A stretch of DNA of 64,000 nucleotides from a virus (lineage: Duplodnaviria > Heunggongvirae > Uroviricota > Caudoviricetes): IMG/VR virus record IMGVR_UViG_2695420859_000012. The stretch is one strand, 5' to 3'. This document shows positions 20,736 through 62,646 of the stretch, piece by piece (position 1 is the stretch's first letter; each line of letters starts with the position of its first letter). A program made the translations under genes and the position numbers. Below the pieces are notes generated by a model. That model was given only the letters and a program-made list of their open reading frames with translations, did not search any database and was not told the DNA's origin.

Positions 20736-20940
20736 TGCGTTCTGCAATCACACTCGCTCAGTGTGTCCCATTTCGGTAACGAGGCTGGAAACTGACCTCG
20801 CTGGTGTTTGGCTTATTAGGCTACTGCCAGATAGACTTCTTCGTTTGCACTTGTATTTAAGTTCAAACAGTCGCGTCTCAACGAAAACAAAGTCATCTTA
20901 TACATAAAAGATAGGTAAGTAAATACTTATCGAAATGTTT

Positions 20941-24384: not shown

Positions 24385-24509
24385 ACCAACTCCTAGCTAA
24401 CAGATGAAAGTATTCTTACAAAAAACTAAGTATGTATCTACTTATCATTTTAGGCGCAATAGTTCCCTATACGAAGATGCCGGGCTTATAGTCTGCCCGG
24501 CATTCACCA

Positions 24510-28940: not shown

Positions 28941-29681
28941 TTAATTAGATAGGGGATCAATAAACCGCCGTGCTTCTTCCAGTTCTTCTGGAAAGTGGGC
29001 GGAAATAAGGCGCTCTGGAACGATTTCCATTAGCCAGATAGCGGAGAAAATTGCGCGTATGCGCTTGCTGCGGGGGATGGTGCGTAAACGCTCCAGAATC
29101 CACTCAAAATAGCTTTCCTGGATCGGGTTGAACTGCATGTCTCCCATATGCTTAAAGCTAACTAGAGAGTCATCCAGACGGGTTGTTGCGCGTCTGGCTA
29201 ATTTCTCTTCGAATATCTCAACCAGCTCTGGCTGCCATAAATGCTGTGGGCGCGGCAGCTTGTCCCACAGCCGTCGTGCAGCTGCGGAAAGAACGGTGGA
29301 GATAAAGTAGTCGTATGAGCAGCAATAGCGGTCAGCAAACTGGCGTGCTTTCCATAGAGACGTTTTATTGGCAGTCGACAACTCCTGATAAGGCAGGCGT
29401 TTTAACCCGGTGGTGAACGGAGCTGTTTCAAAGTGTTCGCGACCGTGCGTCAGCATGATATTTGAGTACTGACGTTTGTATGCCTCCGTAAAAAGACAGG
29501 TGGCCATGAGAGGATGCATGTCGCGGTAATCAAACCACTTCGTCTCGAAGAGTTCAGCCTCGTCTTTACAGCGCGACAAACCAATGTTTTCAGCGACCCA
29601 CTTGTCCATAACAGCGGTATTCCACTCTGTCATGAAGTCGTACTGGTCGTTGTCGATGGTATCGAAAAAGATTTGGCTCAT
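28941..29681 (-). CDS. Hypothetical protein, first gene of helicase/primase operon
   Basis: Start moved to ATG at 29679-29681 (AGGTGAG RBS; track ORF starts at GTG 29690); no recognisable motifs. Confidence 0.4.
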   Translation of the reverse strand: MSQIFFDTIDNDQYDFMTEWNTAVMDKWVAENIGLSRCKDEAELFETKWFDYRDMHPLMATCLFTEAYKRQYSNIMLTHGREHFETAPFTTGLKRLPYQELSTANKTSLWKARQFADRYCCSYDYFISTVLSAAARRLWDKLPRPQHLWQPELVEIFEEKLARRATTRLDDSLVSFKHMGDMQFNPIQESYFEWILERLRTIPRSKRIRAIFSAIWLMEIVPERLISAHFPEELEEARRFIDPLSN

Positions 29682-29797
29682 GTGGCTCACCTGGTAGGTA
29701 GTTACTTACTTATCACAATGAGCGGATGATAGCGACTGGTGGCAGTTTTTGGAAGTGGAAACGGAAGGGAGTTGTTCTGGTGGTGTCTTTTAAAAGA

Positions 29798-39000: not shown

Positions 39001-40166
39001 GATGATGCCGATGACGCTGCCGAACTGGCGGACGATGCGGCTGCCGTTTTTGAGGATTCTGCACGGGTTTCCGACGCTTTCGCGTTCGTTTCGGATGTCT
39101 TCGCTGCGGAAGCAGACCTCGCTGCTGCGCTGGCCTGTTCAGTGGCTTCGCCAGCCTTCGTTGTGGCTGTTGAAGCAGACGATGCGGCACTTTCTGCCGA
39201 TTTTCCGGCGGCTGTGGCACTGGCTGAGGCCTGCCCGGCACTTGTTGACGCGGCACTGGCAGACGACGCAGCCGCTGTTTTTGAGCCTGCTGCAGCCGAG
39301 GCGCTCTGTCCCGCTGCCGTTTCAGAAGACCTGGCGTTCGTCTCGGACGTTTTTGCCGCCTTCGCGGAATTTCCTGCCGCCGTTGCCGAGGAAGCTGCGC
39401 TACTGGCGCTCGAGGATGCGTTCGTTTCTGATGATTTCGCTGCCTCTTTTGAGGCCGCCGCATCCCGGGCTGAGGTGGCAGCTTCTGACGCTTTCGTGGT
39501 CGCGGTGGATGCAGAAGTGGCTGCTGATTGTTGTGACGCTGCGGCATTCGTTTCAGATTTTTTCGCAGCAGTTGCACTCGCACTTGCGGCACTTTGTGAG
39601 GATGCCGCAGCGGATGCACTTTGAGACGCTTGAGAGGCTTTTTCTCCAGCGGTATTGGCGCTTTCTGCTGCTGCGGCAGCACTGGCCGCCGCCTCACGAG
39701 CTTTGTCGCCAGCAGCATCAATCGCGTCAGTGTTATTTTTATACCACTCAACGTTTTCGTTGTGCTCGTTGACGATCTGCATTAGCGGCTTAACGGTTAC
39801 TTCTGAACCGTCTTCACGCTCGATTGTCACCTCATCCAGAGCAGTCAACCAACTGCGCATGGACTTGGAATCAGCCGACATACGCGACATTAGTGCTGTA
39901 AAGCGCGCGCTAAACTGTGTTAAGTCGCCTTCATAGGTCGTAATGATTCGGCACGGAACTTCAGACTGAGTTTCGCCGGTATAAGGTTCTGAGAGAACAA
40001 TGTTCGTATCACTGGTTACGCGCTTGATCTCATACAGCTTATTGTCGGGGCCAATGACGATCATCCCCGGCAACACACCATTAGCTGTTACGTTCCAGGC
40101 TGTCCCTGCCCCAACCAGAGTATTGCTGCCCTGTGTAAATGTGATAGTACCTTCCCTGTACCACAT
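36009..40166 (-). CDS. Long tail fibre with C-terminal intramolecular-chaperone domain
   Basis: 1385 aa; Ala/Ser/Thr-rich shaft; repeated NAATATKLQTARTIGGVSFDG fibre motifs; C-terminal ...SSRRYKKDIETLQ... region resembles the S74-type chaperone as recalled. Confidence 0.8.
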   Translation of the reverse strand: MWYREGTITFTQGSNTLVGAGTAWNVTANGVLPGMIVIGPDNKLYEIKRVTSDTNIVLSEPYTGETQSEVPCRIITTYEGDLTQFSARFTALMSRMSADSKSMRSWLTALDEVTIEREDGSEVTVKPLMQIVNEHNENVEWYKNNTDAIDAAGDKAREAAASAAAAAESANTAGEKASQASQSASAAASSQSAASASATAAKKSETNAAASQQSAATSASTATTKASEAATSARDAAASKEAAKSSETNASSSASSAASSATAAGNSAKAAKTSETNARSSETAAGQSASAAAGSKTAAASSASAASTSAGQASASATAAGKSAESAASSASTATTKAGEATEQASAAARSASAAKTSETNAKASETRAESSKTAAASSASSAASSASSASASKDEATRQASAAKGSATTASTKATEAAGSATAASQSKTAAESAATRAEAAADRAEEIAGAVAMEDASLTTKGVVKLSSAVDSTSESLAATPKAVKAANDNANSRVPSNRKVNGKALTADITLTPKDIGTLNSVTMSFSGGAGWFKLATVTMPQASSIVYIALIGGAGYNVGSPHQAGISELVLRAGNGNPKGITGALWKRTAVGLTNFAWINTSGDTYDIYVEIGNYATRVNIHWDCTANATVSIYTSPTYSASKPSSVTDGVVYTMYSTHQKPTPLDIGALPTTGGTVSGPLSVTGGITGTLNGNASTATKLQTARSIGGVGFDGSANINLPGVNTTGNQNTTGNAATATKLQTARTIGGVSFDGTANINLPGVNTTGNQNTTGNAATATKLQTARTINGVSFDGSANISLSPANIGCPASPTGWLTTGSNGGAITTAQLVTLLQNNGAFNTKSWIARCAWAYANSATIPNSETGCGVIPLAGAVIEVFNNGSSSNNYTIRITTATTTSVSGALTNAEFIYVFNGTDYSPGWRRVYNTKNKPTASDVGALPLTGGTLSGGLTSSGEIISKYANGFRIAYGSFGFFIRNDGSNTYFMLTASGDTLGSWNGLRPITINNTSGAVSIGNGLNVTGGVNGSLNGNASTATKLQTARNINGVKFDGSGDININTLVSRGRVTALSGSTQGTAGIQMYEAYNNSYPTMYGNVLHMKGASAAGEGELLIGWSGTSGAHAPVFIRSRRDNTGAAWSAWAQVYTAKDSIPGVNTTGNQNTTGNAATATKLQTARKIAGVAFDGSADITLTAANLNAYTKTEVTNLLSSYASRSSLTGYSGNLDIIAETLVVKSGGSGGFAIWDIGTTTSGANMYIDPNPGINTVWRSTSSRRYKKDIETLQDRYADELLSLRPVWYRSICRGDRKDWGYYGLIAEEVGEIAPQYVHWREPTNNDSPEDISSNGMVAEGVMYERLVVPLIHHIQQLTKRVEELETKLNSPKE

Positions 40167-40258
40167 GTTGAATATGCTCCTTGATTTGGTGGGCTATCCT
40201 TGCCCACCATTAAGTATGTACCTACTTATTTTTACCGATATAAATATTTTTTTCTACA

Positions 40259-43200
40259 TTACAGAAGGCCAATTCTTACTCGTAGGACGTTGTTATCGTC
40301 ATAAACGTCAATCCGCTGACCATTTATGACCAGTCGCCCATTACCCCCGCTATTACCGTTGATCTCAAGCGTTCCATTTTTGCCGAACCGCCATCCAGAT
40401 CTACCGCTAACAAAATTGGTAGATTGCAGATCGCCTACTTTTGCATTGGTGATTGTGCCATCCTTGATATACGCACCATTCATATAGGCGATACTGTTTT
40501 CGATAACAAATGGCGTGGTGATCTTCCCGTTAACAGAGTTGACCAAACCAAACCTGTCAGCCTGCACCAAAAACTGAGAAAGGCCAGTGGTGTCGATACC
40601 AAGCGCAATACCAGCAACATACTTCTGCCCTCCGCTCGTTGAAGTTTCCATTTTCAACGTCCACGCGGTTGACACTTTTTTGTTGGTATCAGCAATAGCT
40701 GTTGCCTGCTGTTGAATTGTCGCGGTATTTCCATCCACCTCTGCTTTCAGAGTATCGATTCGCCCACTCAGAGCATTATCTGCCTGCGTTCTCGCTGTCG
40801 TTTCAGTTGTTACCGCCGCGGAAATGTTGGCTGCCGTTTGAGACTCTAAGTTTGTGATTTGAGTCGCCAATGCAGCATCTTGCTCTGTACGCGTTTTCGT
40901 TTCGGTTGCTACAGCCGCTTTAATATCCTCTTTGTATTGAGAGGTCAGCTTGGTGATCTGAGACGACAACGCCGAGTCAGCATCAGTTCGAGCCTGCGTT
41001 TCAACTGCAACGGCCGCACTAATATCTTTCGCTGTCTGTGCTTTTAAACTTGAAACCTCTTTTGTTAAAGCGGTATCACCATCAGCACGAGCCGTTGTTT
41101 CTCTGGCAAGAGATGCCTCGAGATCATTAGCTTTTGCTGTAAGAGACGAAATCTGAGTGGACAATGCACTATCGGCATCAGTCCTTGCCTTTGTCTCTAC
41201 AGCAACCGCTGCGGCAATATCAGTTCCGGTTTGTGCTCGCAGGCTGTTAATTTCTCGTGAGAGCGCCTGGTCAGCACTTGCTCTGGCCTCCTGCTCCTGA
41301 GTGATGGCAGCGGATATATCACCGTCAACCTTTGACTGAAGCTGGTTTATTTGTTTGGCTAACGCAGAGTCCCCGCTTGCTCGGGCCTCCTGCTCACTAC
41401 GTATTGCAGCAGAAATATCATCATCAACCTTTGCCTGAAGTTGGGTGATCTGGCTTGCCAGAGCCGAATCTTCCGTTGCTCGGGCTTCTTGCTCTTCCTT
41501 AATAGCTGCGACGATATCGTTGCTTACTTTCGACTCAAGCTGAGTGATCTGTGTCGTCAGAGCTTCATCGGCAGATGTGCGAGCCTCCTGCTCTGTACTA
41601 ATCGCCGCGCTGATATCTCCTTCAAACTTAGATTGCAGCTGAGTGACACGCTTTGCCAACGCTTCATCGCCATCGGCACGAGCGGTGGACTCTTCCAGAA
41701 TACTGGCCTTAATGTCTTCGCCAATTTCTACGCGAATTTCCTCAACCTTCGTGGCCATTGCAGACATATCATCAGCAAAGGTTTTCTGTGTTGTTGCGAT
41801 CTTCGCGTTATTGACCATCTGCTTGTGCTGGTCTTCATCTTGACGAAGAGCTAGGTCAATATTTGTTTTGGCTAACGCCTCAATGTTCGTAGTCAGTTCT
41901 GCACTGGCACGATCGACCTCTGCAACCGTCTTTTTCATTTCTTCAACGGCAGCGGAGCTTTCCTCTACCGTTGACTGCAACACTTCCAGTTGTTTAGCGT
42001 TTGCAGCATCGCCTTCAACACGAGCCTCGCTTTCCTTAGCAATAAGAGCCGCCGCTTCATCTCTTGCAGCCTTTATTGCCTCGACTGTATTAGCGAGAGC
42101 TTTATCGTGTTCAGATACGGTGTTTTCGATTTCAACAATTGCAGCATCAGTAGCATCAATTTTTTCAAACGCTTCATTGACCTTGTCGATCGTTGCCGAA
42201 ACCTCACCTTTAAGCTCGGTTTGTGCGTTCTCCAAAGCATCGCTACGCTCGTTGAATTTTATTTCAAAACCCGCGAGGTTATCGCTGAACTGCTTATCTA
42301 ATTCAGCTATATCTTCCTTAACGTCGTTTACCGACCCCTCCAAAGATTCGACGCTCTGGTTGATATGCTCATTTAACTCGTCAACTGCTTCTTGAGAGGC
42401 TTTGCTGTTGATGTCCTCAAGCAGAGCCTGACCAAGCTCGGAAGATGTAATTTTGCCAGCCAGGAACGACAGTACATCGCGAGTTGTCGCCTCTGTACCC
42501 AAGTTTGAGTTCGGAGGGCTTAACATACCTCGCTTGTTCGATGCTCGAACCCAGTAATACCACGTTTCGCTATCCCCAAGGCCAGCATGTGTAAAGGTGG
42601 TGCTTGCAGACTCTGCGATCAGTTTCGCCGTATCCAGATTGTTGGTCTGGGATGCGTAAACATTAATGTGATCAAGGTCTACCGAATCTGGATTAACCCA
42701 ATTCAGTATCACATTACGATAGTCTCCAACGGCCGTTAATGACGTTGGTGCATCCGGCGGTGTCATTGTGCCCAGCACCTGATAAACGGTACTGATAATT
42801 TCTGTTTTTTTACCGTTGAATGAAACCGCATACAGTTGGAAGTCGTAGCGTCCATTCTCCGCGACATTAACGATTTCGTATTGTTCTTCGGTTACACGCG
42901 CCGATTGCCAGTTCGATACATTGTTTTCATCAGAACGTCGCCAACTGATCCAATACTCTGGAGATTTCCCTTCCCATGTTGCAGTCAGTTTTACTGACAG
43001 GTTGCCCGGGCTTGAGAGGTAAGTCCCTTCAGTGATTTGCAAATTAGACGGCTTGGAGTAAGTCGGGTCCAATACCGTCGTATTCTGCGGGATAAGCGTT
43101 GCACCATTGTCGATCGCCTCATATTTAGACGGATTGTTTTCAACAGCGGTGATGTCAAAGCTACCCGACGTTTCCCCCTGAGCGATGTTAACGATGCGAA

Positions 43201-44989
43201 CGCGCATAGGTTCGAGATCTGGTTCTGTAATTGTCCAGACACCGTTCAAAACAGGCGTTTCCGCTGACGACAGAGCTTTTGAAAACGTAACCTTTGTTAT
43301 GTTTTCGCCAGTTTCAAGAACATCGCGCTCAACGATTTTGCCTTCCTGATTCAATATCCGAATAAAGCTGCCGCTTTTAGCTAACGACACAGGCGCATCG
43401 AGAGTGATGCTGTTTTTGGTAAACTCCACAATTCGACCGGAGTTACGTTTACCTGCACGATATTTGTTCTGAATCAGAACGGTTTCACCGGGCATCAGAA
43501 ATGAGGCGTCTAAGCCGGCAGTAAATGTAATTACATCCGACTCCATTCTGGCGGTATACAAAAGCCACAAACCAACTCGGTGAGCCTGGCCTCGGCTTGT
43601 ACATCCAAATGCTACGACTTCTGTTTTACGCTCACCATAACGGCGCATTGCGTCCTGATCTTCAACGTACTCGATGTTTTGCTTATAACCGTCCTCCTTG
43701 TTGTTGTAGGTTACGAGCGCAACGGATGGGCGATCTTTACGCGCAGAACCTTTATAGGTAAACAGTCCATCTTTGACGTTGGAGTTGGTAAACATCATTA
43801 CTGGATCTGATGGGCTATCCTGCATGATGTTAACCATGCCACCAGCCCAAAACACCATGCCGCGGAATGCACCGGCAATATCCTGAATTAATCGGTATGC
43901 GTCTTGTCGACTGGTGATCTGCGTATTGATTGCAAAGCGTTTCTCTTTACCCCCAAAGCCATCATCGACCTCTTCGTCACAATATCGACCAATCTGGTAG
44001 AGCTGGCCGAGGTCAATCATGGATTCCGACACAAATTGCCCAAGACCATACCGAGTATTGGTAAGCAAATCGTAGAGAATCCACGCAGGGTTTGAAGAAG
44101 ACAACAGCTTAAAAGTACCGTCCCATACGCCGACATAAGTATTGGTGTATTCGTTGTAGTTTGACGGTACTCGGATTTTGATACCGCGCACCAAATACGA
44201 ACGGGAAGGCATTGTGCTACCAAACTGCTCTGAATTGACCTTCAAGCCAACAAGAGCAGAGTTAGGGTAGTTCATTGGCGTGTCGACAATCTCACCTATG
44301 GAATCAACCCATGTGTCGTTGTAGAGGTACTGGCTACTGTTATCATCTGTAAGACGAATCACCCTAACCTTGTATGCACGACCAGGCTTAGGTAGTTTCA
44401 GCTCATAGCTACGGTAATACACGCCGGTTTTCTTTGCCGTTAGCGTGATATCAACGCTTTTCTCACCTTCTGCCACTACATCAGAAAATGTTGCGTCTCC
44501 GTTGGCGATCTGGAATTTGTACTTCACCGTAGTGCCATTTGTATCGCCAGAGCTTTTATCAACGCTACGTAAAGAGGGGAATTTCATGATGACACGAACG
44601 CGATCAGCTTCATCGTTATCGATTGAAACCGTAACGTCGTGTGTTTTTTTAAGCTGAATATTTACGGACTTAGGCGTTTCGACAAAATCAAAACCAGCCA
44701 TTGGCGTCTGGTCTTGTGAGCCGTCACGAAAATCCCATGTAATACCGCTGAAGTTGGAAGAGCCATCTTCATTCAAGATCGGTAAATCGTCGATGAAGAT
44801 CGACTTTGCGCCATTTACCAGGCCACCGATAACCCCCTCGCCAAGAAGGTCGAGGATGGCTGCCATAGCACGAGAATTGACAGTATCATCAGCTTCAACC
44901 GGGGTACGGCTGGAGCTTTTACTTTTCTTGCCACCAGCACCGGCAATAAGAAGCGGTAATTTTTTCTTCTTGAACTGTTCCATGTCCAA
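40259..44989 (-). CDS. Central tail fibre / host-specificity protein (lambda gpJ-like)
   Basis: 1576 aa following gpI-like gene; contains about 33-aa tandem coiled-coil repeats. Confidence 0.75.
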   Translation of the reverse strand: MDMEQFKKKKLPLLIAGAGGKKSKSSSRTPVEADDTVNSRAMAAILDLLGEGVIGGLVNGAKSIFIDDLPILNEDGSSNFSGITWDFRDGSQDQTPMAGFDFVETPKSVNIQLKKTHDVTVSIDNDEADRVRVIMKFPSLRSVDKSSGDTNGTTVKYKFQIANGDATFSDVVAEGEKSVDITLTAKKTGVYYRSYELKLPKPGRAYKVRVIRLTDDNSSQYLYNDTWVDSIGEIVDTPMNYPNSALVGLKVNSEQFGSTMPSRSYLVRGIKIRVPSNYNEYTNTYVGVWDGTFKLLSSSNPAWILYDLLTNTRYGLGQFVSESMIDLGQLYQIGRYCDEEVDDGFGGKEKRFAINTQITSRQDAYRLIQDIAGAFRGMVFWAGGMVNIMQDSPSDPVMMFTNSNVKDGLFTYKGSARKDRPSVALVTYNNKEDGYKQNIEYVEDQDAMRRYGERKTEVVAFGCTSRGQAHRVGLWLLYTARMESDVITFTAGLDASFLMPGETVLIQNKYRAGKRNSGRIVEFTKNSITLDAPVSLAKSGSFIRILNQEGKIVERDVLETGENITKVTFSKALSSAETPVLNGVWTITEPDLEPMRVRIVNIAQGETSGSFDITAVENNPSKYEAIDNGATLIPQNTTVLDPTYSKPSNLQITEGTYLSSPGNLSVKLTATWEGKSPEYWISWRRSDENNVSNWQSARVTEEQYEIVNVAENGRYDFQLYAVSFNGKKTEIISTVYQVLGTMTPPDAPTSLTAVGDYRNVILNWVNPDSVDLDHINVYASQTNNLDTAKLIAESASTTFTHAGLGDSETWYYWVRASNKRGMLSPPNSNLGTEATTRDVLSFLAGKITSSELGQALLEDINSKASQEAVDELNEHINQSVESLEGSVNDVKEDIAELDKQFSDNLAGFEIKFNERSDALENAQTELKGEVSATIDKVNEAFEKIDATDAAIVEIENTVSEHDKALANTVEAIKAARDEAAALIAKESEARVEGDAANAKQLEVLQSTVEESSAAVEEMKKTVAEVDRASAELTTNIEALAKTNIDLALRQDEDQHKQMVNNAKIATTQKTFADDMSAMATKVEEIRVEIGEDIKASILEESTARADGDEALAKRVTQLQSKFEGDISAAISTEQEARTSADEALTTQITQLESKVSNDIVAAIKEEQEARATEDSALASQITQLQAKVDDDISAAIRSEQEARASGDSALAKQINQLQSKVDGDISAAITQEQEARASADQALSREINSLRAQTGTDIAAAVAVETKARTDADSALSTQISSLTAKANDLEASLARETTARADGDTALTKEVSSLKAQTAKDISAAVAVETQARTDADSALSSQITKLTSQYKEDIKAAVATETKTRTEQDAALATQITNLESQTAANISAAVTTETTARTQADNALSGRIDTLKAEVDGNTATIQQQATAIADTNKKVSTAWTLKMETSTSGGQKYVAGIALGIDTTGLSQFLVQADRFGLVNSVNGKITTPFVIENSIAYMNGAYIKDGTITNAKVGDLQSTNFVSGRSGWRFGKNGTLEINGNSGGNGRLVINGQRIDVYDDNNVLRVRIGLL

Positions 44990-47067: not shown

Positions 47068-47149
47068 TGTTTCATCCTTGAAATAAGTAGGCGCTAACAT
47101 CCTGTCAGCGCCACAATGATAGTAAATTAGTACTTACTTATCCAGATAC

Positions 47150-47485
47150 TTAAGCCTCAAATACTTGTCTGAATGTAGCAGTTAAGACACAGTACCCCTG
47201 ATATCGCTTGACCGTATGACTGTCACATACAACTACAATCTGCTTGCCTCTTGGATTAACCCAATAGAACGATTCAACGCCTGATCGCTCAGTCAGGAAG
47301 TCATCGATTGCATTAATTTCGTTGTATGATCTGGTAAAGGTTAACGACCATTCTTCTTTAATACGATTAAGACCTTGAGCCTGTCGCTGCTCGTAGTCAT
47401 CACCAAAATTAAGTACCGTTACATTCGGTTTTACGCTTTTTTCAGATTCGTAATCTGGATACCAATTAAACGTTTGTCTTTCCAT
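47150..47485 (-). CDS. Minor tail protein (gpM-like)
   Basis: 111 aa between tape measure and gpL-like gene. Confidence 0.6.
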   Translation of the reverse strand: MERQTFNWYPDYESEKSVKPNVTVLNFGDDYEQRQAQGLNRIKEEWSLTFTRSYNEINAIDDFLTERSGVESFYWVNPRGKQIVVVCDSHTVKRYQGYCVLTATFRQVFEA

Positions 47486-52120: not shown

Positions 52121-52484
52121 ATATTTGCATCAGTTGCTCTTTGGCGTCAGGGTCTGCCTTATCCTGGCTTGGATCGTAGACTTTATCTGTTACGACTGGT
52201 CTTCCAATCCTGAGTTGCAAACCCTCCATGAACGCCTTCACAGCCTCGCCATCCGCCTGGGACGCACGAGCGACTTGTAAGTTGCGGACATCCTCTTCCG
52301 CACGCAGACGGTCTATATTGCGACTGAGCATCCAGAACATCGTGAGAGGAACGTTCAGTAGCTCTAATGGCGACACGGCGTAGTGAGCAACTACACGACT
52401 GAAATAGAATCCGAGATCTATTGAGACGGTCCTTGTCCCGGATTCATCGCGGGAAATTACTTTGCCCCTTCGCCAGCCGCTTTT
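52107..52484 (-). CDS. T-frame extension of tail assembly chaperone (GT product by -1 frameshift)
   Basis: -1 frame relative to G is open from 52493 down to 52107; A5 run (plus 52481-52485) allows Lys-tRNA re-pairing. Confidence 0.5.
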   Translation of the reverse strand, partial: KSGWRRGKVISRDESGTRTVSIDLGFYFSRVVAHYAVSPLELLNVPLTMFWMLSRNIDRLRAEEDVRNLQVARASQADGEAVKAFMEGLQLRIGRPVVTDKVYDPSQDKADPDAKEQLMQIFGRG

Positions 52485-52774
52485 TCGTTTTCTTCATCAA
52501 TCACTTCCATAGCGAAGGTGAAGATCTGCTGGAGTTGCGGAACAGTCAGTTTTTCAAGAACTTCATCAGGCACTGAAGGGATAACCTTACGAACCAGATC
52601 TGCATAAGCTGTCACTTGCTCAACAGGAGACATGTTCATGAGATCTTTGCCTTCCATCTGCTTGATGGAAACGAACAAACCTACCGTCATTTCAACGATG
52701 GGATATTCCTGACCGCCAAATTTGATGCTTTTCTTCGGAGGCAGAATGGAATCGAGATCGAGTAATTTGGTCAT
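52457..52774 (-). CDS. Tail assembly chaperone (gpG-like)
   Basis: 105 aa between major tail and tape measure genes; acidic C-terminus. Confidence 0.6.
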   Translation of the reverse strand: MTKLLDLDSILPPKKSIKFGGQEYPIVEMTVGLFVSIKQMEGKDLMNMSPVEQVTAYADLVRKVIPSVPDEVLEKLTVPQLQQIFTFAMEVIDEENEKAAGEGAK

Positions 52775-52829
52775 TGGTTTAAATCCTTTTAAAAGAGAGG
52801 CTCATCCTGAGCCTCTGCTTAGTTACTGA

Positions 52830-53576
52830 TTAATCTGCGGAGTTAATCGTTACTGACTTAGTAGCCTTCTTAGAACCGCTATTGCTGGTGAAGGAGATGT
52901 TTGCAGTACCCTGCGCCACACCGCGCACAAGACCCGTTTGATCTACCGTGGCCTTTTCCTGGTCTTCGGATTCCCAAACACCGGTTTTGTCTGCGGCATC
53001 AGCTGGAGTGATTTCGGCTGTCAGTTGCACAGTTTCTCCAGCTTTTACGGTTGGAGATTCCGGTTTGATCGACACGGTTTTTACCGGTTTAGGGCCGCTC
53101 ATTCTTCCCAGAACGCCTTCGTCATCAGGGTACGCACTGAACTGAACAGAGAACACACGAACATCATCAGACTGGTAAGTCATGGTGAAGTTACCTGCGG
53201 TCGCAGCTTTCGGGATGGTCAGAACGTAGTCGGTAGTGTCCTGCGGAGTCAGAACCAGCTCTTTGGCTACGTCGATCAGGTTGACACCCTGTGCGGAAGT
53301 GATGGTCACAGCGTTGTCGTCTTCGTTCAGAGTAGACCCCGGCATCAGATCGACCATATTTTTCAACACAGACTCGGCCAGCGGCGCAGTAATGGTAATG
53401 TTACGACCCTGCACCAGCTCGGACATAATTGTCTGCCCGTGCTGGTCGACAGTGACTTTCAGCGTTTCAGTGGCTACTTCAACCTGAACACCACCTTTGG
53501 TGTAACCCAAATCCACACCACCAAACGACACCTTACAGGCACCAAGTTTGATGTTTTTTACATGGGTATTAGACAT
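52830..53576 (-). CDS. Major tail protein with C-terminal Ig-like domain
   Basis: Start re-called at M13 behind AAGGAG (track 52830..53612); C-terminal Big_2-like segment. Confidence 0.65.
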   Translation of the reverse strand: MSNTHVKNIKLGACKVSFGGVDLGYTKGGVQVEVATETLKVTVDQHGQTIMSELVQGRNITITAPLAESVLKNMVDLMPGSTLNEDDNAVTITSAQGVNLIDVAKELVLTPQDTTDYVLTIPKAATAGNFTMTYQSDDVRVFSVQFSAYPDDEGVLGRMSGPKPVKTVSIKPESPTVKAGETVQLTAEITPADAADKTGVWESEDQEKATVDQTGLVRGVAQGTANISFTSNSGSKKATKSVTINSAD

Positions 53577-53650
53577 TGATGGAAAACTCCTTTTTCCGTT
53601 AATTCTACGCATTCATTGCGCTAATAGTAAGTATATACTTACCGATTAAC

Positions 53651-54157
53651 TTAATTCAATAAATAGCCAGCAAATTCAACAGGAATGCCTGCTTCTATTA
53701 ATGCTCCATCATTTTTGGGATAAATGATTGGCATCGCAATCGGTCGTACCAGTCGAAAATAAACACCACCAGATTCCGTTTCCTCTACTGGAAACATCTC
53801 AATGATTTTATTGGCTTTCTCAACCGTCGTAGTAATTGACGAACCACGCACAATGATTGTGAATGATTCGTGATAAAAGCCCTGTAGCTCATGATCGATG
53901 CTGATACCGGTATTTGGGTTAATAAGCAGGACGCCAGATTTCACATTGGCAGGCAAGTAGTGACAGAAAATGTCAGTCCCGACCGTGCCAATCTTTGCCT
54001 TCTGCATCAAACTTGCAAACGCTTCAATAAACACATTAACCTCTCGTAAATCCGGCTTTTCTGGCAGCCTCAAGAATCGCTTCTGAGAACTGCTTCTCGC
54101 TAATTTCCACCGCTCTTTCCAGAAAGTGTGGCCCAACACGGGGTTTAACACCGGCAA
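53651..54157 (-). CDS. Tail terminator / tail completion protein (by position)
   Basis: 168 aa upstream of major tail gene. Confidence 0.45.
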   Translation of the reverse strand: MPVLNPVLGHTFWKERWKLARSSSQKRFLRLPEKPDLREVNVFIEAFASLMQKAKIGTVGTDIFCHYLPANVKSGVLLINPNTGISIDHELQGFYHESFTIIVRGSSITTTVEKANKIIEMFPVEETESGGVYFRLVRPIAMPIIYPKNDGALIEAGIPVEFAGYLLN

Positions 54158-54940: not shown

Positions 54941-55757
54941 TCATACGGTTGTTGATGTAACTGACCAGCAAGCGCCAGGTACTACGAGCCACATGCACGT
55001 TTGCAGCTTTACCGGTACGGTACATGTTGGTTGTTTCACCGATGGACTCTGACAAAATGCCATCCTCTCGTGCTGCGGCTACATCATTGCCATTTGCGAT
55101 CTCACACGCTTCGTTGACAACGGCAAGCATCAACGCTTCTTTGAAGTAGTCAGGGAACTCTTCAAACTTCTCCTGCGTCATCTTTTCCCAATCGACTAAA
55201 TCATGCCGGTACGCTCCATCTGCTTCCCACGGAATGTCATACACATTCAGCATATTTTGAGGGCGATCGTATCGGTCAAAGTCGATACGTAGAATTTTGC
55301 GGATTGAGAACGGTAAAGTTTTAATTCGTCTGGTAGCCTCAATGAGACGCTTGCGCATTAAGCCTTCACCATCCGACAGCAAAGTGTCCCCATTCAGCAT
55401 ATCGATCGCCTGCATTTGAGCATCAGCGACAGTTGCAAACGACTGTTCTGGTATCGACAGTTCAAAACTATTCAGCAGAACATACATTTGCCGCTCTTCA
55501 TGCGTCAGACCCGATGCAACAGCCTTCACAATGACGTACCGCAGATCTCGCTCTTTCTCAGAGAGCTGGTTATATTCAGCCGACACGACAACCGGAATCG
55601 ACATTTGACCGCTGGTAATTTCTAGCGGCTCGCCATCAACGAGAATAGCCCCGGTGCTGTCCTTTACTGTGTAGGTGGCAGATTCGATATCCAGCACGTT
55701 GAAGGCAAATGAAAGAGAAACAGCTTCACCGCTACGATACGAGTCGATCTGCGCCAT
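54924..55757 (-). CDS. Head completion / connector protein (by position)
   Basis: 277-aa ORF. Confidence 0.4.
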   Translation of the reverse strand: MAQIDSYRSGEAVSLSFAFNVLDIESATYTVKDSTGAILVDGEPLEITSGQMSIPVVVSAEYNQLSEKERDLRYVIVKAVASGLTHEERQMYVLLNSFELSIPEQSFATVADAQMQAIDMLNGDTLLSDGEGLMRKRLIEATRRIKTLPFSIRKILRIDFDRYDRPQNMLNVYDIPWEADGAYRHDLVDWEKMTQEKFEEFPDYFKEALMLAVVNEACEIANGNDVAAAREDGILSESIGETTNMYRTGKAANVHVARSTWRLLVSYINNRMIVRRA

Positions 55758-56191
55758 TACTCACCGCCTTGTGCTTTCAGGATGCCGTCAATCATTTCGA
55801 CAATTCCTTTCGCTTTGACACCAACCTGATTACCAATAACTCGTAGACCGGCAATACCTTCGTTGTCTGCAATTGACTCCAGCTCTTCTCGTGTGAAAGT
55901 CTGGATCTGTTTGGCCGGTTCATCTGGTGTCCCACGTTTCATTGGCACAATGTCAGGCGCTGCTGGCTCGGTAATCAGGTCTGCTGTCAATTCACCACGA
56001 TCACTGTATGCGGCAGACGGAGAAACATTTTTGCCCTCTACTGTTGACGCTCGCATTGAAGCACAAATCCTCTGCTGATCGATAAAAGGCAACTCCGCTA
56101 CGGATACCCCGTTCTCGAACTGAACGCCACACAGCATTCCCGAATAACCGGAAAATTGCGGTTCTAATAAAACAATTTTTGCTGGTTTCAT
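55757..56191 (-). CDS. Hypothetical head-associated protein
   Basis: 144-aa ORF. Confidence 0.35.
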   Translation of the reverse strand: MKPAKIVLLEPQFSGYSGMLCGVQFENGVSVAELPFIDQQRICASMRASTVEGKNVSPSAAYSDRGELTADLITEPAAPDIVPMKRGTPDEPAKQIQTFTREELESIADNEGIAGLRVIGNQVGVKAKGIVEMIDGILKAQGGE

Positions 56192-56235
56192 AACGCTTTC
56201 TCTCCACTTGGGCGGCGAAAGCCGCCCAATATCGG

Positions 56236-57156
56236 TTATTCCTGTGCGGCAGTAACTTCTACAGTTGCTGTCGCTTTGTGGCTACCATCTTGGGTAGTAA
56301 CCTCGATTGTGGCAGTACCAGCCGCAACACCAGTTACAACACCGGTTTCGCTGTCAACCGTTGCAAACTCGGTATTTTTGGATTCCCAAGTAACGGTTTT
56401 ATTTGTGGCTCCTGCCGGCTCGACATTTGCTGTCAGCTGAACAGTTTTGTTTGCCTCAACGGTTGTGCTATTTGGGTCGATTTCGACGCCGGTAACAGCC
56501 ACAACAGGCGCAGTTACTTCCACCGTTGCAGTTGCCTTTTTGCTGCCATCTTGGGAAACGATCTCAATCGTCGCAGTGCCAACTTCTACACCAGTAACGT
56601 TCCCGCTCTGGTCTACCGTTGCCTTATCTTCATTTTTGGAAGACCAGGTAACAGCCTTATTCGTCGCATTTGACGGCTGAACATTCGCTTTCAGACTGAC
56701 TGATTTCCCTTTCTCAACAGACGTTGATTCTGGCGTTACCGTTACGGATTGAACGGCTACCGGATTTACGGTGACTTCCACTGAAGCGGAAAGCTGGGTT
56801 TCCTGATCAGTTGCAGTAATTTTTACTTTGCCTGGTGCTACGCCAGTTACTAATCCAGTGCCGTTAACGGTTGCAATTTGGTCATTGGCTGACTTCCAGG
56901 TGAATGAACTGGCACTCTTACCCATACTAATACCTGCACTAAGTTGAACAGTTTTCCCAACCAAAACTGACGGTGAAGCCGGGGTTATGTTTACGGATTG
57001 GGAGAGGGGAACCGCCTGCAAACAAGCAGATAGCTGACTTTGTTGCCGCTCGGTTAAAGGTTCATCGGAGATAGAATTGGTAAATCCGGCACGGCACATA
57101 TGCCCCGTAAAATCCGAAAATGCCTCTTCCGTAATCTTCATCTTTTGTTCTGGCAT
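56236..57156 (-). CDS. Ig-like (Big_2) repeat protein, probable capsid decoration protein
   Basis: Three Big_2-like repeats (e.g. VTPESTSVEKGKSVSLKANVQPSNATNKAVTWSSKNEDKATVDQSGNVTGVEVGTATIEIV); follows capsid gene. Confidence 0.6.
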   Translation of the reverse strand: MPEQKMKITEEAFSDFTGHMCRAGFTNSISDEPLTERQQSQLSACLQAVPLSQSVNITPASPSVLVGKTVQLSAGISMGKSASSFTWKSANDQIATVNGTGLVTGVAPGKVKITATDQETQLSASVEVTVNPVAVQSVTVTPESTSVEKGKSVSLKANVQPSNATNKAVTWSSKNEDKATVDQSGNVTGVEVGTATIEIVSQDGSKKATATVEVTAPVVAVTGVEIDPNSTTVEANKTVQLTANVEPAGATNKTVTWESKNTEFATVDSETGVVTGVAAGTATIEVTTQDGSHKATATVEVTAAQE

Positions 57157-57170
57157 TTCTCGCTCCTACA

Positions 57171-57200
57171 AAAAGGGTGGGCGTATAGCCCACCCTTTAA
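57171..57200. terminator. Hairpin agggtgggc-gtata-gcccaccct downstream of capsid gene
   Basis: 9-bp GC-rich stem with T-run on minus-strand transcript (CCCACCCTTTTTG). Confidence 0.6.
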
Positions 57201-57229
57201 CATAGATAACTACTTATCTACTACACTGA

Positions 57230-58105
57230 TTAAATTTTTACATTGGTCAGTGCAGCGATAGCCTTATCGTGCTTATTCGCCAGAGAGCAGTACCACTTCA
57301 CACGGGTACGTACTGCGTCTTTGTTCTGTACAGTACCAATGTTTTCAACAACGATACCTGCGTTATCGCCGCCATACAGACCAGTAACGCCGTTCTCTTC
57401 TGACAGATGCAAGCAGTAGATGCTTGCTTTGCCAGAATCAGTCGGGATGAAGTCGTTGATGATGAACGGAACGCCGTTATGACACAGCATCGGACGACCG
57501 AAGTTCTCCATCATGATTTCAGACGGACCTACGTTTACTGTACGCAGCAGCGCACGGTAAGCACGAAGGTGCTCTGAACGCATCATGATGCAGTCAGCAC
57601 CAAGATCTTTCACCGCATCGACCAGTTCGTCGAACATAGAGAAAGTCATAGATGCACCGGCGATATCGATCTTCTGATCTGCGTGCATCAGGCGTGGAAT
57701 GCCGTCAAACGCTTTGTTGTTGGTGCTGGAGTCACCCAAAATCAGATTGCGACGGAACGCACGAGCCAGACCTTTAACTTTCTGACGAACCTGAATAGCC
57801 AACTGGTTATTGGTGTCGGCCATAGTGGTTGCCAGGAATTTATCAACGTCTACGTCACCAGCCAGAATACGCAGTTTCGCAACGCATTCTTCGAAGGTTG
57901 CTGCACCTTCCGGGATGGTGTCGTTAACGTCGATGAAGGTAGCCTCACTCAGCGTTTTTTCACGGTTGTACAGATATGCCTTTGAAGTAATTTTCATAAA
58001 AGGCAGGATGGCAAACAGGTCATCGCGATCGATGATGGTTTCAATCACGCCCTGTTCAAGTTCGTTGTTAGACAGCTTTTCAGCTTCTTCACGCAGTAAT
58101 GGCAT
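57230..58105 (-). CDS. Putative major capsid protein
   Basis: 291 aa; position after scaffold, strong RBS AAAGGGAA, terminator downstream. Confidence 0.55.
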   Translation of the reverse strand: MPLLREEAEKLSNNELEQGVIETIIDRDDLFAILPFMKITSKAYLYNREKTLSEATFIDVNDTIPEGAATFEECVAKLRILAGDVDVDKFLATTMADTNNQLAIQVRQKVKGLARAFRRNLILGDSSTNNKAFDGIPRLMHADQKIDIAGASMTFSMFDELVDAVKDLGADCIMMRSEHLRAYRALLRTVNVGPSEIMMENFGRPMLCHNGVPFIINDFIPTDSGKASIYCLHLSEENGVTGLYGGDNAGIVVENIGTVQNKDAVRTRVKWYCSLANKHDKAIAALTNVKI

Positions 58106-60614: not shown

Positions 60615-60640
60615 TTGAATAACCTTAGATAATTACCTAC

Positions 60641-61897
60641 CTATCGAGAACCACCAAGAATAACACGGTTTTTGACTGGATACCTACGATGTACTGGATA
60701 GCCCAATGCGTCTGCACTATGCTCAATGCCACCTGTCTTATCCATATCTCGTGTTCCAGGCTTGTAGATGACTTTTTCCAGTGAATCAATCAAATGCTTG
60801 CACTTCGGATCGATATACAACCGGATATCTCCAGATGCGGTCATCAGCATTCGGTTAACAGCATTAACACGATCCGCAATTGGCGGGTGCTTTTTCGAAT
60901 AATCGACACGTAAGAATCCCTTCTCTTTGAATATGTCGACGTCAGACTCCCCGCGAGCATGTTGGCGATAAGCACCTGCCGGATCTGGAAATACCGTTAT
61001 CTGTGATTTCCAGCGCCAGAAGCGTCTCTCAAGCTCATCACAAACCTCTGCCGTGTTAGAGGAAAAGAGCACCAATTCATCAATTGCCCATAGCTCACCA
61101 TTTGGCTGAGGTTGCAAAATTACTGAAGACATCGGGTCAATGTTGAAGTCCTGCCCTACCCATATAGGCAACCGAGGGTTGAACTGAAGCGGTTTTACAT
61201 GCACGTTACGATCGAACGGGTAGTAAACGCGCCCGGACATGTTCTCAAAGCTCGCCAGGTACTCCTGAGCGAACGATTTCGGGTCCATATCGTTCTTAGC
61301 AGCTTCAATTTCCGCCGTAGGCACAAACGGAGAATCGGCAGTTACAAACTGCCAGCTCTTCCACTGTCCCTTTCTTTGCAGCTCTACGTTCTGGCCTATA
61401 GTCCACAGTTTGTGAAATTCCGAGAAACCTTTTGGCGTACCAATGATAAGTGCACCGCCGCGTGTCGATGAAAGAGTAGGTCGTAACACCTTGTACCAGG
61501 TGTCAGCCTTCATATCCTGAAATTCATCAAGCACTACAAAATGCAACGCTACGCCGCGCAGAGTGTCAGGCTTATCAGCACCTTTGAGGGCGATCTCCGA
61601 ACCGTTCTTCAACACGATTGTCATCGTGGTGTCGTTCTTTTTCCTAACCCACTTACGAGGCAGAACTTCCTGTAGATCGTCCCACAAAATCTGGCGAGCC
61701 ATCTGGTAAGTAGGAGCGACATACCAGACCCTTTGCTTTTTTTCCTTTGCCGCCGCACGAATAATAGTGGAGATCGACAACCGGGATTTTCCCCAGCGTC
61801 GACCAGCACAAACAACTTTAAATCGATGCGGAGACTGGAAGACTTTCATCTGTCCAGAATGCAGTTGCACAAGACTGAGCGAGGACGGGATTGCCAT
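60641..61897 (-). CDS. Terminase large subunit
   Basis: Walker A VVCAGRRWGKS, Walker B VVLDEF; nuclease-region acidic residues. Confidence 0.8.
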   Translation of the reverse strand: MAIPSSLSLVQLHSGQMKVFQSPHRFKVVCAGRRWGKSRLSISTIIRAAAKEKKQRVWYVAPTYQMARQILWDDLQEVLPRKWVRKKNDTTMTIVLKNGSEIALKGADKPDTLRGVALHFVVLDEFQDMKADTWYKVLRPTLSSTRGGALIIGTPKGFSEFHKLWTIGQNVELQRKGQWKSWQFVTADSPFVPTAEIEAAKNDMDPKSFAQEYLASFENMSGRVYYPFDRNVHVKPLQFNPRLPIWVGQDFNIDPMSSVILQPQPNGELWAIDELVLFSSNTAEVCDELERRFWRWKSQITVFPDPAGAYRQHARGESDVDIFKEKGFLRVDYSKKHPPIADRVNAVNRMLMTASGDIRLYIDPKCKHLIDSLEKVIYKPGTRDMDKTGGIEHSADALGYPVHRRYPVKNRVILGGSR

Positions 61898-62529: not shown

Positions 62530-62646
62530 AGATCCCTCTAAAACACACAGAGCGCGTCCATGCGCTCTAAAACAACTTGTTTACTGCATTTTCTAACCAA
62601 CTTGTTTTCTGGGTTGTTTAATTAGGTCTGGGCATGTCTTATTAAG

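Follow-up and report, generated by a model that had tools for sequence, protein, structure and literature searches.

The 64,000-nucleotide stretch that we analysed (the window) is part of an SSU5-like phage-plasmid, with 97% identity to Escherichia phage Cyrano and 81% identity to SSU5. Its late genes lie on the minus strand. Cyrano in E. coli LF82 can be induced with ciprofloxacin (PMC9928086). SSU5-like phage-plasmids are widespread, and a 361-base probe over the capsid junction had matches in 932 plasmid records, among them plasmids of Yersinia pestis, Salmonella enterica and Klebsiella. To our knowledge, late regulation in these elements is essentially unstudied. The major capsid protein (MCP) gene is annotated as such in Cyrano and SSU5 and belongs to the SrpI-like and GP7 capsid families of Pfam. 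It is followed by an Ig-like gene, and a J-like tail tip gene precedes the tail fibre gene in the same way (Table 1). The usual ribosome-binding sequence in this phage is AAGGAU.

Table 1 Genes, hairpins and dyads of the window discussed in the text (SD, Shine-Dalgarno sequence)
Feature	Position	Strand	Sequence or context
Major capsid protein (MCP) gene, 291 aa	57230..58105	−	From the open reading frame list; stop codon TAA 57232-57230
Ig-like gene (3x Big_2), "decoration" gene of the initial annotation	56236..57156	−	ATG at 57156
SD of the Ig-like gene	57167-57163	−	AGGAG
J-like tail tip protein gene, 1576 aa	40259..44989	−	Phage_Tail_Tip, FNIII-A_GpJ
Tail fibre gene, 1385 aa	36009..40166	−	Cyrano annotation: homolog of phage P1 tail-fibre protein S
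SD of the fibre gene	40177..40182	−	AAGGAG; ATG at 40166
Element A, predicted intrinsic terminator of the MCP gene	57170..57198	−	Stem AAAGGGUGGGC/GCCCACCCUUU, loop UAUAC, U-run 57174-57170
Element B, fibre-leader hairpin	40187..40209	−	UGGUGGGC-AAGGAUA-GCCCACCA, then AAUCAAGG; loop GGA 40199-40197
L-like leader hairpin	47090..47112	−	GGCGCUGAC-AGGAU-GUUAGCGCC (CAGGAUG); dyad copies 47119-47152 upstream; then SD AAGGA and L-like start 47067 (probable RefSeq start)
Tail-gene leader hairpin	52796..52816	−	AGAGGCUC-AGGAU-GAGCCUCU (CAGGAUG); then CUUUU, SD AAAGGA and start codon of gene 52457..52774
terS leader hairpin	62548..62569	−	UAGAGCGC-AUGGAC-GCGCUCUG, then UGUGUUUU
Dyad, capsid gap	57203..57220	−	TAGATAAGT/AGTTATCTA, with the quoted string GATAAGTAGTTATC within; 9 nt past MCP stop
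Dyad, fibre leader	40211..40228	−	TAAGTAGGT/ACATACTTA; quoted string TAAGTAGGTACATACTTA
Dyad	60626..60643	−	Overlaps TerL stop codon, abuts SD of portal gene
Dyad	53628..53641	−	GTAAGTAT/ATACTTAC; between genes 53651..54157 and 52830..53612
Dyad	29695..29712	−	Abuts SD of gene 28941..29690; divergent intergenic gap
Dyad	24427..24444	−	GC hairpin before, T-run after
Dyad	20912..20929	.	11 nt past stop codon of CDS 20941..21231

The initial annotation had described one leader architecture, a dyad motif followed by a GGTGGGC hairpin, before the Ig-like and the tail fibre genes. The strings it quoted are all found on the minus strand of the two gaps, where it had placed them. In the capsid gap, AAAGGGTGGGC-tatac-GCCCACCCTTTTT corresponds to 57198-57170, and in the fibre leader GGTGGGC-aaggata-GCCCACC corresponds to 40208-40188. 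The two hairpins, here called elements A and B, differ in stem length, loop, U-run and the gene with which each travels.

Element A: The hairpin starts 31 nt past the MCP stop codon and folds into an 11-bp GC-rich stem with a 5-nt loop (−20.5 kcal/mol, z = −4.3). It was detected by the terminator scan of the window, and UUUUU follows directly 3' of the stem on the sense strand (5-10 T in relatives). The hairpin stays with the capsid gene in all relatives, about 80 in number, and 73 of 80 related loci have it as GGTGGGC..GCCC(A/G)CC plus T-run. In a group of relatives (L051-L064) that lack the Ig-like gene, element A is kept and is followed by another gene, which starts with ATGAAACCAGC. The stem is nearly invariant, and no double compensatory changes were found in it among the relatives. 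Therefore, its structural support comes from the wobble pairs, which number 25 G.U vs 1 A.C on the sense strand in relatives, and from the Acinetobacter relative, in which an analogous but non-homologous terminator (AAAAAAGAGACUA-GAAA-UAGUCUCUUUUUU) occupies the corresponding place after the MCP gene.

Element A thus has the GC stem-loop, the U-run and the conserved position downstream of a gene end that characterize intrinsic terminators. It is probably a canonical Rho-independent terminator of the major capsid gene, from which we infer termination and its efficiency. RNA polymerase leaving the capsid gene would transcribe the hairpin and UUUUU and terminate partially or fully. This may increase the amount of capsid mRNA over that of the genes downstream or block stray read-through in the plasmid state. 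As a point against this reading, a strong terminator placed inside a long late operon would require either read-through or antitermination. Of the functions that had been proposed initially, an attenuator or terminator-type signal is borne out for this hairpin. Its assignment as a leader of the decoration gene did not hold, as it marks the 3' end of the MCP gene with or without the Ig-like gene.

Element B: The fibre-leader hairpin (−15.5 kcal/mol, z = −4.9) was not reported by the terminator scan, and no U-run was found 3' of it, where AAAUCAAGG places AAAUC instead. Some relatives have UUUUC or CUUUC after the fibre hairpin. The stem occurs as GGTGGGC, GGCGGGC, GACGGGC or GTGTGGGC in relatives, and the loop AAGGAUA is conserved. 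Three pairs of the stem show compensatory changes, e.g., column pair 46-62 with CG in 13 and UA in 11 cases. Element B accompanies the fibre start ATGTGGTACAGG despite a different upstream gene (L133-L140, L144). Even with the stem largely lost, as in members of L128-L141, the loop string GCAAGGA(U/A)(A/U)GC is retained. The loop GGA lies 19 nt upstream of the GGA in the fibre SD. An RNase III site was ruled out because stems of 6-10 bp are too short for this enzyme. At the gathering threshold of Rfam 15, only three tRNAs were reported over the full window, and E-value scans of the two sites gave sub-threshold matches only, mostly to sRNA models ending in a terminator.

The 7-nt stem is identical at both sites, as the initial annotation had noticed. 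In 64 kb, GGTGGGC-N(3-12)-GCCCACC occurs exactly twice vs no occurrence in shuffles, and both gap regions are more stable than shuffles (z = −4.0 for the capsid gap and −2.8 for the fibre gap). Among the 24 intergenic minus-strand hairpins, 0.045 shared 7-mers are expected if the register is loop-proximal and 0.41 if any register is allowed, so that the identity is borderline with respect to chance. Conservation is also lacking: among 62 related loci with a fibre leader, GGTGGGC/GCCCACC is found in only 15, as a minority allele, and in Cyrano the fibre stem is GGCGGGC/GCCCGCC despite 97% identity. The expectation in any register would suit a mere coincidence, in which the two GC-rich hairpins are unrelated and neither they nor the two AT-rich strings have a function. 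We regard this as scarcely credible, since both hairpins and both dyads are conserved in position across genera, the hairpins have the z-scores given above, and the dyad census stands at seven sites vs 0.28 expected.

The dyad and the GGTGGGC hairpin could also be a single duplicated RNA leader module for attenuation, processing or stability before the highly expressed decoration and fibre genes. Both gaps indeed run from a dyad through a GC hairpin with the same stem to a ribosome-binding site, the M/L junction (47152-47068) shows the same order of parts, and the low loop-proximal expectation is in its favor. Such a module is nevertheless very unlikely, as its capsid-side copy stays at the capsid 3' end without a decoration gene, the fibre hairpin has neither the U-run nor the UAUAC loop of its counterpart, and the stem identity is restricted to a minority of relatives. 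In addition, the most abundant late product is the upstream capsid protein and not obviously the Ig-like or fibre protein. Dyad and hairpin lie between 2 and ~35 nt apart, depending on the relative, and are therefore independent modules rather than one architecture.

We favor with moderate confidence a joint reading, of which the terminator function of element A is one part and the CsrA and dyad readings below are the others: the two look-alike hairpins are different signals of the late transcript that share a 7-nt stem in the window genome. Each is a conserved RNA-level structure, but the conserved RNA element proposed initially is not one shared element. The initial observation is thus confirmed in part, and its interpretation is supported in part. 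As it was stated, the shared-leader finding is mostly ordinary: one would expect a terminator past the capsid gene, and the stem identity comes near coincidence.

GGA-loop leaders: Element B is one of four leader hairpins with GGA in the loop, which precede terS, gene 52457..52774, the L-like gene and the fibre gene. On the sense strand, the commonest 5-mer in the loops of GC hairpins is AGGAT. Counting the best hairpin of each leader, a loop with GGA was found in 17 of 25 terS leaders, 20 of 22 leaders of gene 52457, 18 of 19 L leaders and 22 of 33 fibre leaders, which gives 77 of 99 distinct related leaders overall. The terS leader loop in relatives is AAGGAA or AGGA. The stems vary by junction and by relative, for instance GUGUGGUC-AGGAC-GACCGCAC and AGCCCCCA-AGGA-UGGGGGCU. 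In a set of 80 related leaders, the frequent loop heptamers are CAGGAUG (23), AAGGAUG (14), CAGGAAG (11) and AAGGAUA (10), and the base 3' of the loop GGA is U in 56, A in 18, C in 5 and G in 1. GGAG is thus seen in 1 of 80 loops vs 22 of 80 true ribosome-binding sites of the same leaders. Of 80 distinct leaders, 79 have the ribosome-binding site 17-26 nt downstream of the loop GGA, and one has it 44 nt away. As the leaders are related by descent, all these counts overstate the independent support.

A search for the pattern "GGA-loop hairpin + ribosome-binding site + start codon" gave 8 distinct sense hits vs 1 antisense hit, and 2.4 ± 1.6 hits in random sequence. The same pattern had 0 hits in ~100 kb of very distant relatives (L151-L158), and no GGA-loop leaders were found in the Acinetobacter relative. 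The class is hence limited to the enterobacterial lineage. A crude Fisher test of GGA in the loops of intergenic vs coding hairpins (4/24 vs 5/81) was not significant (p = 0.2), unlike the more specific pattern above, which was enriched.

Loops of this type are known from RNAs bound by CsrA. CsrB carries CAGGA(U/A/C)G repeats in hairpin loops, and the SELEX consensus is RUACARGGAUGU, with stems of 4 or fewer pairs in most SELEX ligands (PMC7652899). In glgC, one CsrA site is in a hairpin loop and another at the ribosome-binding site, and CsrA can bridge distances of 10-63 nt, best above 18 nt (PMC7652899). In the window, the CsrB-type CAGGAUG is matched exactly at 47112 and 52816, as it is in 37 of 80 related loops. 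The window fibre loop reads CAAGGAUAG and the terS loop CAUGGACG. All four hairpins have a GGA in the loop and a second GGA at the ribosome-binding site, 17-26 nt away and within the published range of 10-63 nt. The geometry of the four leaders and, in part, their loops match a glgC-type CsrA dual site, from which we infer CsrA as the probable ligand and repression as the likely effect. A CsrA dimer tethered by the loop GGA would bridge to the ribosome-binding site and thereby repress translation. In the window, tblastn detected no CsrA homolog (best E = 0.057), so that the host protein would be the ligand. If this holds, CsrA, a carbon and stationary-phase regulator, would be a host input to virion-gene translation, and the four conserved leaders provide a testable link between host Csr physiology and virion production.

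The same four hairpins might act without CsrA, as intercistronic weak or decayed terminators and mRNA stabilizers whose SD-like loops serve as 30S standby sites and boost initiation after long untranslated gaps. In some relatives, a T-run is present past the fibre hairpin (e.g., GCCCGUCUUUUC in L127 and L133), and the hairpins at 52816 and 62569 are followed by the sequences given in Table 1; after the window fibre hairpin, AAAUC is found in place of such a run. Late gaps of at least 42 nt mostly have a GC hairpin of −13 to −20 kcal/mol directly upstream of the ribosome-binding site, whether it contains GGA or not. The loops are conserved while the stems change, and a plain stabilizer or terminator needs no loop conservation. 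As AAGGAU is also the usual ribosome-binding sequence of the phage, the loops could be auxiliary landing sites for ribosomes, but such sites should favor GGAG, which the loops avoid. Overall, we consider a function without CsrA rather unlikely, and we retain the CsrA reading for the four leaders.

Dyad: Beside each hairpin lies a separate dispersed palindrome, and this dyad is real. In enterobacteria, its consensus is TARGTARGT/ACYTACYTA with at least 10 copies, and the strict ones are all intergenic. In total, it marks twelve or more intergenic junctions. The strict pattern TA[AG][AG]TA-N-TA[CT][CT]TA gave seven sites, all intergenic, vs a mean of 0.28 in shuffles, and a relaxed pattern gave 28 matches vs 4.7 expected. 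The palindrome is undescribed in the literature on SSU5-like elements, where we found neither the dyad nor the leader-hairpin motifs. In the Acinetobacter relative, at least 8 junctions carry a consensus of their own, ATTAGTAAGCGCTTACTAAT, which is related to the enterobacterial one but distinct from it, and this variant occupies the same junctions.

The dyad is most likely read in a sequence-specific manner by a factor encoded on the element, which possibly controls the read-through of the terminators and hairpins that follow. An antitermination model in which the dyad overlaps the terminator, and a model with a transcription start inside the terminator, were ruled out because the spacing between dyad and terminator varies from 5 to 20 nt.

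The dyad may instead be a DNA site for a dimeric regulator encoded on the element, of the P1 late-promoter box or L5 stoperator type, with the hairpin independent of it. This is a real possibility, which we hold to be short of probable. Within a genome, one half-site is used at all copies. L082 has a variant half-site, TATGTA/TACATA, at 2 of 3 sites, and the Acinetobacter junctions share their own consensus. The R/Y positions in one half vary independently of those in the other (84 perfect, 61 G.T and 33 A.C distinct instances), in line with a DNA site. At the capsid site, by contrast, the dyad folds as an 8-bp hairpin (−6.0 kcal/mol), the pairing is kept to 96% in 41 distinct relatives with double changes in 5 of 9 pairs, and the wobbles are G.U in 24 vs A.C in 3 cases. 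Over all sites, the strand test gave no clear bias of this kind, with G.U:A.C ratios of 61:33 for spacing 6 and 33:39 for spacing 2. Some copies are found in divergent promoter gaps (18318, 29695), and one is in the spacer of a sigma70-like promoter (TTGAAA-N17-TATGAT, 59143-59115). Several others, however, are squeezed into gaps of 26-38 nt and abut the ribosome-binding site, and arm length and inner spacing vary among the sites. A promoter 5-20 nt ahead of a strong terminator, where the capsid dyad lies, would be pointless.

Late promoters of phage P1 are one model for such a DNA site. P1 has 11 late promoters in which a 9-bp inverted repeat at −22 is bound by Lpa, in addition to a −10 hexamer (PMC10695390). 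The dyads contain AAGT..ACTT, a partial likeness to the P1-type inverted repeat AAGTNACTT, but with inner spacings of 0, 4 and 8 nt. This core resembles the −22 box AAGTTACTT of P1 LPhot, which is found exactly only in long palindromes at ~29825 and ~62675. A sigma70 promoter scan returned no promoter-like site in the capsid or fibre gap. At the capsid dyad, the −10 candidate is TATGTT (4/6) with the terminator immediately after, and at the fibre dyad it is an overlapping hexamer, TAATGG (2/6), that is not usable; neither is a −10 of the P1 type. A promoter reading of the dyads in general was rejected: −10 sequences at dyad ends had to be forced (T at position 6 in ~9/13), with no −35 and nothing at the fibre site. 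Most sites lack a −35. A tblastn search of the window with P1 Lpa found nothing at E ≤ 10; another 45-50 kb of the element lie outside the window.

Taken together, enterobacterial phage-plasmids of the SSU5 family may couple the translation of terS, the tail gene, L and fibre to host CsrA and may separately carry a palindrome read by an element-encoded factor that possibly controls read-through; we propose this combined scheme only tentatively. The palindrome offers a handle on the putative regulator of the element. GGA-loop leaders and palindrome together could help explain why the element is silent as a plasmid.

Known systems offer parallels for each of these parts. In phage T7, the intrinsic terminator T-phi after gene 10 lies just past the major capsid gene. 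Like T-phi, element A is a GC stem-loop with a U-run directly past the most abundant structural gene, lies within a longer late transcription unit and is conserved in position in relatives. Unlike T-phi, it has a stem that is unusual in hardly varying within the family, and it is preceded by an AT-rich palindrome.

Intergenic repeats are known from several phages, namely, the "stoperators" of mycobacteriophage L5, which are intergenic repressor sites, the start-associated sequences of cluster K mycobacteriophages and the promoter/stem-loop cassettes (PeSLs) of T4-type phages. With these, the dyad shares that a short conserved motif recurs in short intergenic gaps throughout the operons of one phage lineage, but it differs in sequence, symmetry and host range. 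P1 (NC_005856) is likewise a phage-plasmid with many dispersed short inverted repeats before late genes and the core AAGT-N-ACTT. In contrast to P1, the capsid and fibre sites lack a −10 hexamer at the P1 distance, no Lpa homolog was found in the window, and the dyads are longer and variable in length, with one of them upstream of a terminator.

For the GGA-loop leaders, the likeness to glgC and CsrB is in a leader-loop GGA 17-26 nt upstream of the GGA at the ribosome-binding site. The loops CAGGAUG, CAGGAAG and CAGGACG reproduce the CsrB repeat exactly, and GGAG is avoided. Compared to typical CsrA ligands, the leader stems are longer and GC-richer (7-9 pairs), and the fibre loop AAGGAUA is a heptaloop that deviates from CAGGA(U/A/C)G of CsrB. 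Unlike glgC, the leader hairpins are intercistronic within a phage late operon, as putative CsrA sites proposed from sequence. Host CsrA is reported to repress the lysis gene cel of plasmid ColE7 (PMC2896534), which is a precedent for host CsrA controlling translation on an extrachromosomal element. There, the target is a single colicin lysis gene, whereas here a set of virion-gene leaders would come under the control of the host protein.

The window matches SSU5-like phage-plasmids, Escherichia phage Cyrano at 97% identity and Salmonella phage SSU5 at 81%; E. coli plasmids carry close copies of the region. The minus strand carries all structural genes. In L167 (NZ_CP022167.1, a near-identical E. 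coli plasmid), an IS3-family transposase is located at 60602-61815, in the interval equivalent to the tape-measure gene of the window. The window is without this insertion, and the offset between window and record coordinates shifts by ~1.3 kb across the interval. The plus-strand ORFs listed over three consecutive tRNA genes (Rfam tRNA, 41.6-75.5 bits) are spurious.

The strings quoted in the initial annotation are exact in both gaps when the minus strand is read. The window has two occurrences of GGTGGGC-N-GCCCACC, shuffled sequences none, and both gaps fold better than shuffled controls. The AT-rich dyad preceding each hairpin is strongly non-random: the strict half-site pattern has seven sites, all intergenic (0.28 expected), and the relaxed pattern 28 matches (4.7 expected). 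Less weight falls on the identity of the two 7-nt stems: among the 24 intergenic minus-strand hairpins of the window, 0.045 shared 7-mers are expected when only the loop-proximal register counts and 0.41 when any register does. The identical stems are present in the window, but only 15 of 62 related loci have a fibre stem equal to that of the capsid terminator; in Cyrano (97% identity), it is GGCGGGC/GCCCGCC. The proposal of one shared leader architecture is not supported: each hairpin has its own length, loop, U-run status, gene linkage, and evolutionary behaviour, and the distance from dyad to hairpin varies.

The capsid-gap hairpin is the terminator of the major capsid gene, at which we infer that transcription ends. 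It starts 31 nt past the stop codon, and its 11-bp stem extends beyond the common 7 nt (AAAGGGUGGGC paired with GCCCACCCUUU, loop UAUAC, -20.5 kcal/mol). A UUUUU run after the stem completes the canonical intrinsic terminator layout. With the capsid protein as query, 80 IMG/VR loci were fetched, and the order stop, AT-rich dyad, GC hairpin, and T-run recurs there 3' of the capsid gene; hairpin and T-run are found in 73/80. The related loci L051-L064 have no Ig-like gene; a ATGAAACCAGC... gene (homolog of 55757..56191 in the window) comes directly, and dyad and terminator are unchanged. Hence, the element belongs to the 3' end of the capsid gene and is not a decoration-gene leader, as had been assumed. 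Stem pairing is 92% over 41 distinct sequences. No double changes occur, and the single ones are wobbles, which form pairs on the sense strand only (25 G.U, one A.C). The loop varies among relatives (UAUAC, AAGUC, AGUC, UUUC). An Acinetobacter baumannii plasmid with a homologous capsid gene has a wholly different terminator at the equivalent place (AAAAAAGAGACUA-GAAA-UAGUCUCUUUUUU), also preceded by an AT-rich palindrome; the hairpin of a Moellerella relative is GGGGUGAGGC-GUAA-GCCCACCCCUUUUU.

The dyad is a dispersed palindrome, with a family consensus best written TARGTARGT|ACYTACYTA. In the Acinetobacter relative, the dyad takes a form of its own, ATTAGTAAGCGCTTACTAAT, found at eight or more late-operon junctions (3' of TerL, on both sides of the capsid gene, and 3' of the tape-measure gene among them); its copies recur at junctions matching those of the window. 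The dyad is therefore old with conserved positions, and this version shows a palindrome family that is ancient and co-evolving with the element. The arms, (TARG)n and (CYTA)n with a 4-nt period (e.g., 60626-60643, 29695-29712, 57203-57226), place stops in all frames of both strands at several junctions; such stops may serve the function or be incidental.

Action of the dyad as an RNA hairpin is favored by the capsid site, where pairing is 96% kept, 5/9 pairs changed on both sides, and wobbles are G.U 24 versus A.C 3; the arms measure 6 to 10 bp. Recognition of a specific DNA or RNA sequence by a factor of the element is indicated by one half-site common to all copies within a genome, a variant half-site at 2/3 sites of the related locus L082, and R/Y positions that vary independently between the arms when all sites are pooled. 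Divergent promoter gaps contain copies too, as does the spacer of a sigma70-like promoter, close to consensus, in the portal gene. Our best guess is sequence-specific recognition by a protein of the element. The promoter-like site, TTGAAA-N17-TATGAT (10/12), lies within the portal gene, at its 3' end; its spacer is filled by the copy TAAGTCAGTACTTACTTA, and the site is conserved in many relatives. In its core, the dyad is similar to the -22 box of P1 late promoters (AAGTTACTT in LPhot). However, the two dyad sites lack a -10 hexamer at the right distance, and the capsid-gene dyad lies upstream of a terminator at variable distance, which speaks against a P1-type late promoter. No Lpa homolog was found in the window. 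A ~60-bp long palindrome, GACCTGCTTC(C/T)GTATATAT..AATAAGT(T/A)ACTTATT..ATATATAC(A/G)GAAGCAGG, is present in two copies; one is in a divergent intergenic gap, the other ~90 nt upstream of the hairpin in the terS leader. The center of the palindrome is identical to the LPhot -22 box, making it a candidate late promoter or operator.

Coordinates of the features in the window and, where stated, in L168
Feature	Coordinates	Strand	Remark
Gap 1, first site			73 nt, between major capsid gene 57230..58105 and Ig-like gene
Ig-like gene	56236..57156	minus	three Big_2 domains
Capsid terminator	57170-57198	minus
Gap 2, second site			92 nt, between J-like tail tip gene 40259..44989 and tail-fibre gene
Tail-fibre gene	36009..40166	minus	P1 S homolog (Cyrano annotation)
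GGA-loop hairpin before terS	62569-62548	minus
GGA-loop hairpin before gene 52457..52774	52816-52796	minus
GGA-loop hairpin before L-like gene	47112-47090	minus	gene start 47067 after coordinate adjustment
GGA-loop hairpin before fibre gene	40187-40209	minus
Other intercistronic GC hairpins	56208-56229, 47501-47522, 35974-35996	minus	neither U-run nor GGA loop
Strict dyad copies	60626, 57203, 53628, 40211, 29695, 24427, 20912
Looser dyad copies	6418, 18318, 34827, 47119-47152, 59119, 62661
ATTAGTAAGCGCTTACTAAT in L168 (A. baumannii plasmid NZ_CP010398.1), gaps	1002-1153, 3014-3058, 5652-5786, 6690-6827, 10013-10096, 10643-10736, 17035-17106
Sigma70-like promoter	59115-59143	minus
Long palindrome	~29790-29850, ~62640-62700
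tRNA genes	19919-20162	minus

The fibre-leader hairpin differs in kind from the capsid terminator. It reads UGGUGGGC-AAGGAUA-GCCCACCA (-15.5 kcal/mol), then AAAUCAAGG; it has no U-run, and the terminator scan gave no call there. In every locus fetched with the C-terminus of J as query, the fibre gene (start ATGTGGTACAGGGAAGG) has a leader with the order dyad, hairpin, AAGGAG. As this arrangement holds despite an extra gene between J and fibre in some loci, the hairpin travels with the fibre gene. Its stem has compensating substitutions (GGUGGGC/GCCCACC, GGCGGGC/GCCCGCC, GACGGGC/GCCCGUC, GUGUGGGC/GCCCACAC); column pair 46-62 is CG in 13 sequences and UA in 11, and pair 45-63 is GC in 17, AU in 4, and GU in 2. 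The loop is nearly constant (AAGGAUA, AAGGAU, AAGGAC, AUGGAU), and the string GCAAGGA(U/A)(A/U)GC is retained even with the stem mostly lost.

Most late-operon gaps of at least 42 nt have a GC hairpin directly 5' of the next ribosome-binding site, and AGGAT is the commonest loop 5-mer of sense-strand GC hairpins. Among distinct leaders, GGA is in the loop in 17/25 for terS, 20/22 for gene 52457..52774, 18/19 for the L-like gene, and 22/33 for the fibre gene. Stems vary between and within junctions across relatives (e.g., GUGUGGUC-AGGAC-GACCGCAC, AGCCCCCA-AGGA-UGGGGGCU), and the loop heptamers include CAGGAUG (23), AAGGAUG (14), CAGGAAG (11), and AAGGAUA (10). The ribosome-binding site follows the loop GGA at 17-26 nt in 79/80 leaders and at 44 nt in one. 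The combined pattern (GGA-loop hairpin, ribosome-binding site, start codon) is enriched, with eight distinct matches on the sense strand and one on the antisense strand (random sequence, 2.4 ± 1.6), and none in ~100 kb of very distant relatives. A structured, loop-conserved leader is well supported. The chief alternative to CsrA as its reader (see below) would be an auxiliary landing site for ribosomes or a plain stabilizer. GGAG is avoided in the loops, which argues against a landing site: GGA is followed by U, A, or C in 79/80 leaders and by G in one, and 22/80 have GGAG at the genuine ribosome-binding site. Conservation of the loop sequence argues against a plain stabilizer.

The other GC hairpins in the table (-16 to -18 kcal/mol) also lie just 5' of ribosome-binding sites. 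Directly after the one at 47522-47501, a weak hairpin, CUCACA-AGGA-UGUGAG, has in its loop the ribosome-binding site of the M-like gene (47150..47485); this site sits within ACAAGGAUGU (~47488-47503, minus strand), the CsrA SELEX consensus core. After the terS leader hairpin comes UGUGUUUU, with a U-run to ~62540. This terminator-like signal separates the presumed late promoter region from the first late gene; the layout resembles lambda PR'-tR' and suggests control by antitermination. In L168, a strong terminator is at the equivalent place (~1100-1145).

We found no match to these motifs in curated RNA families and no description of them in the literature on SSU5-like elements. CsrB repeats carry CAGGA(U/A/C)G in hairpin loops, and the CsrA SELEX consensus is RUACARGGAUGU (PMC7652899). 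In the leader of glgC, a loop site of high affinity tethers the CsrA dimer, which bridges to the ribosome-binding site; the bridging range is 10-63 nt, with an optimum >18 nt (PMC7652899). The GGA-loop leaders agree with these published properties in distance to the ribosome-binding site and, for part of the loops, in sequence, and CsrA may, at somewhat short of an even chance, be their reader. As the window has no CsrA gene, host CsrA would be the ligand. There is a precedent in which CsrA controls the lysis gene of an extrachromosomal element (PMC2896534). The capsid-gene element belongs to a very well-known kind, the intrinsic terminator, and the fibre leader would fit a known kind, the CsrA-type leader, in an unreported context.
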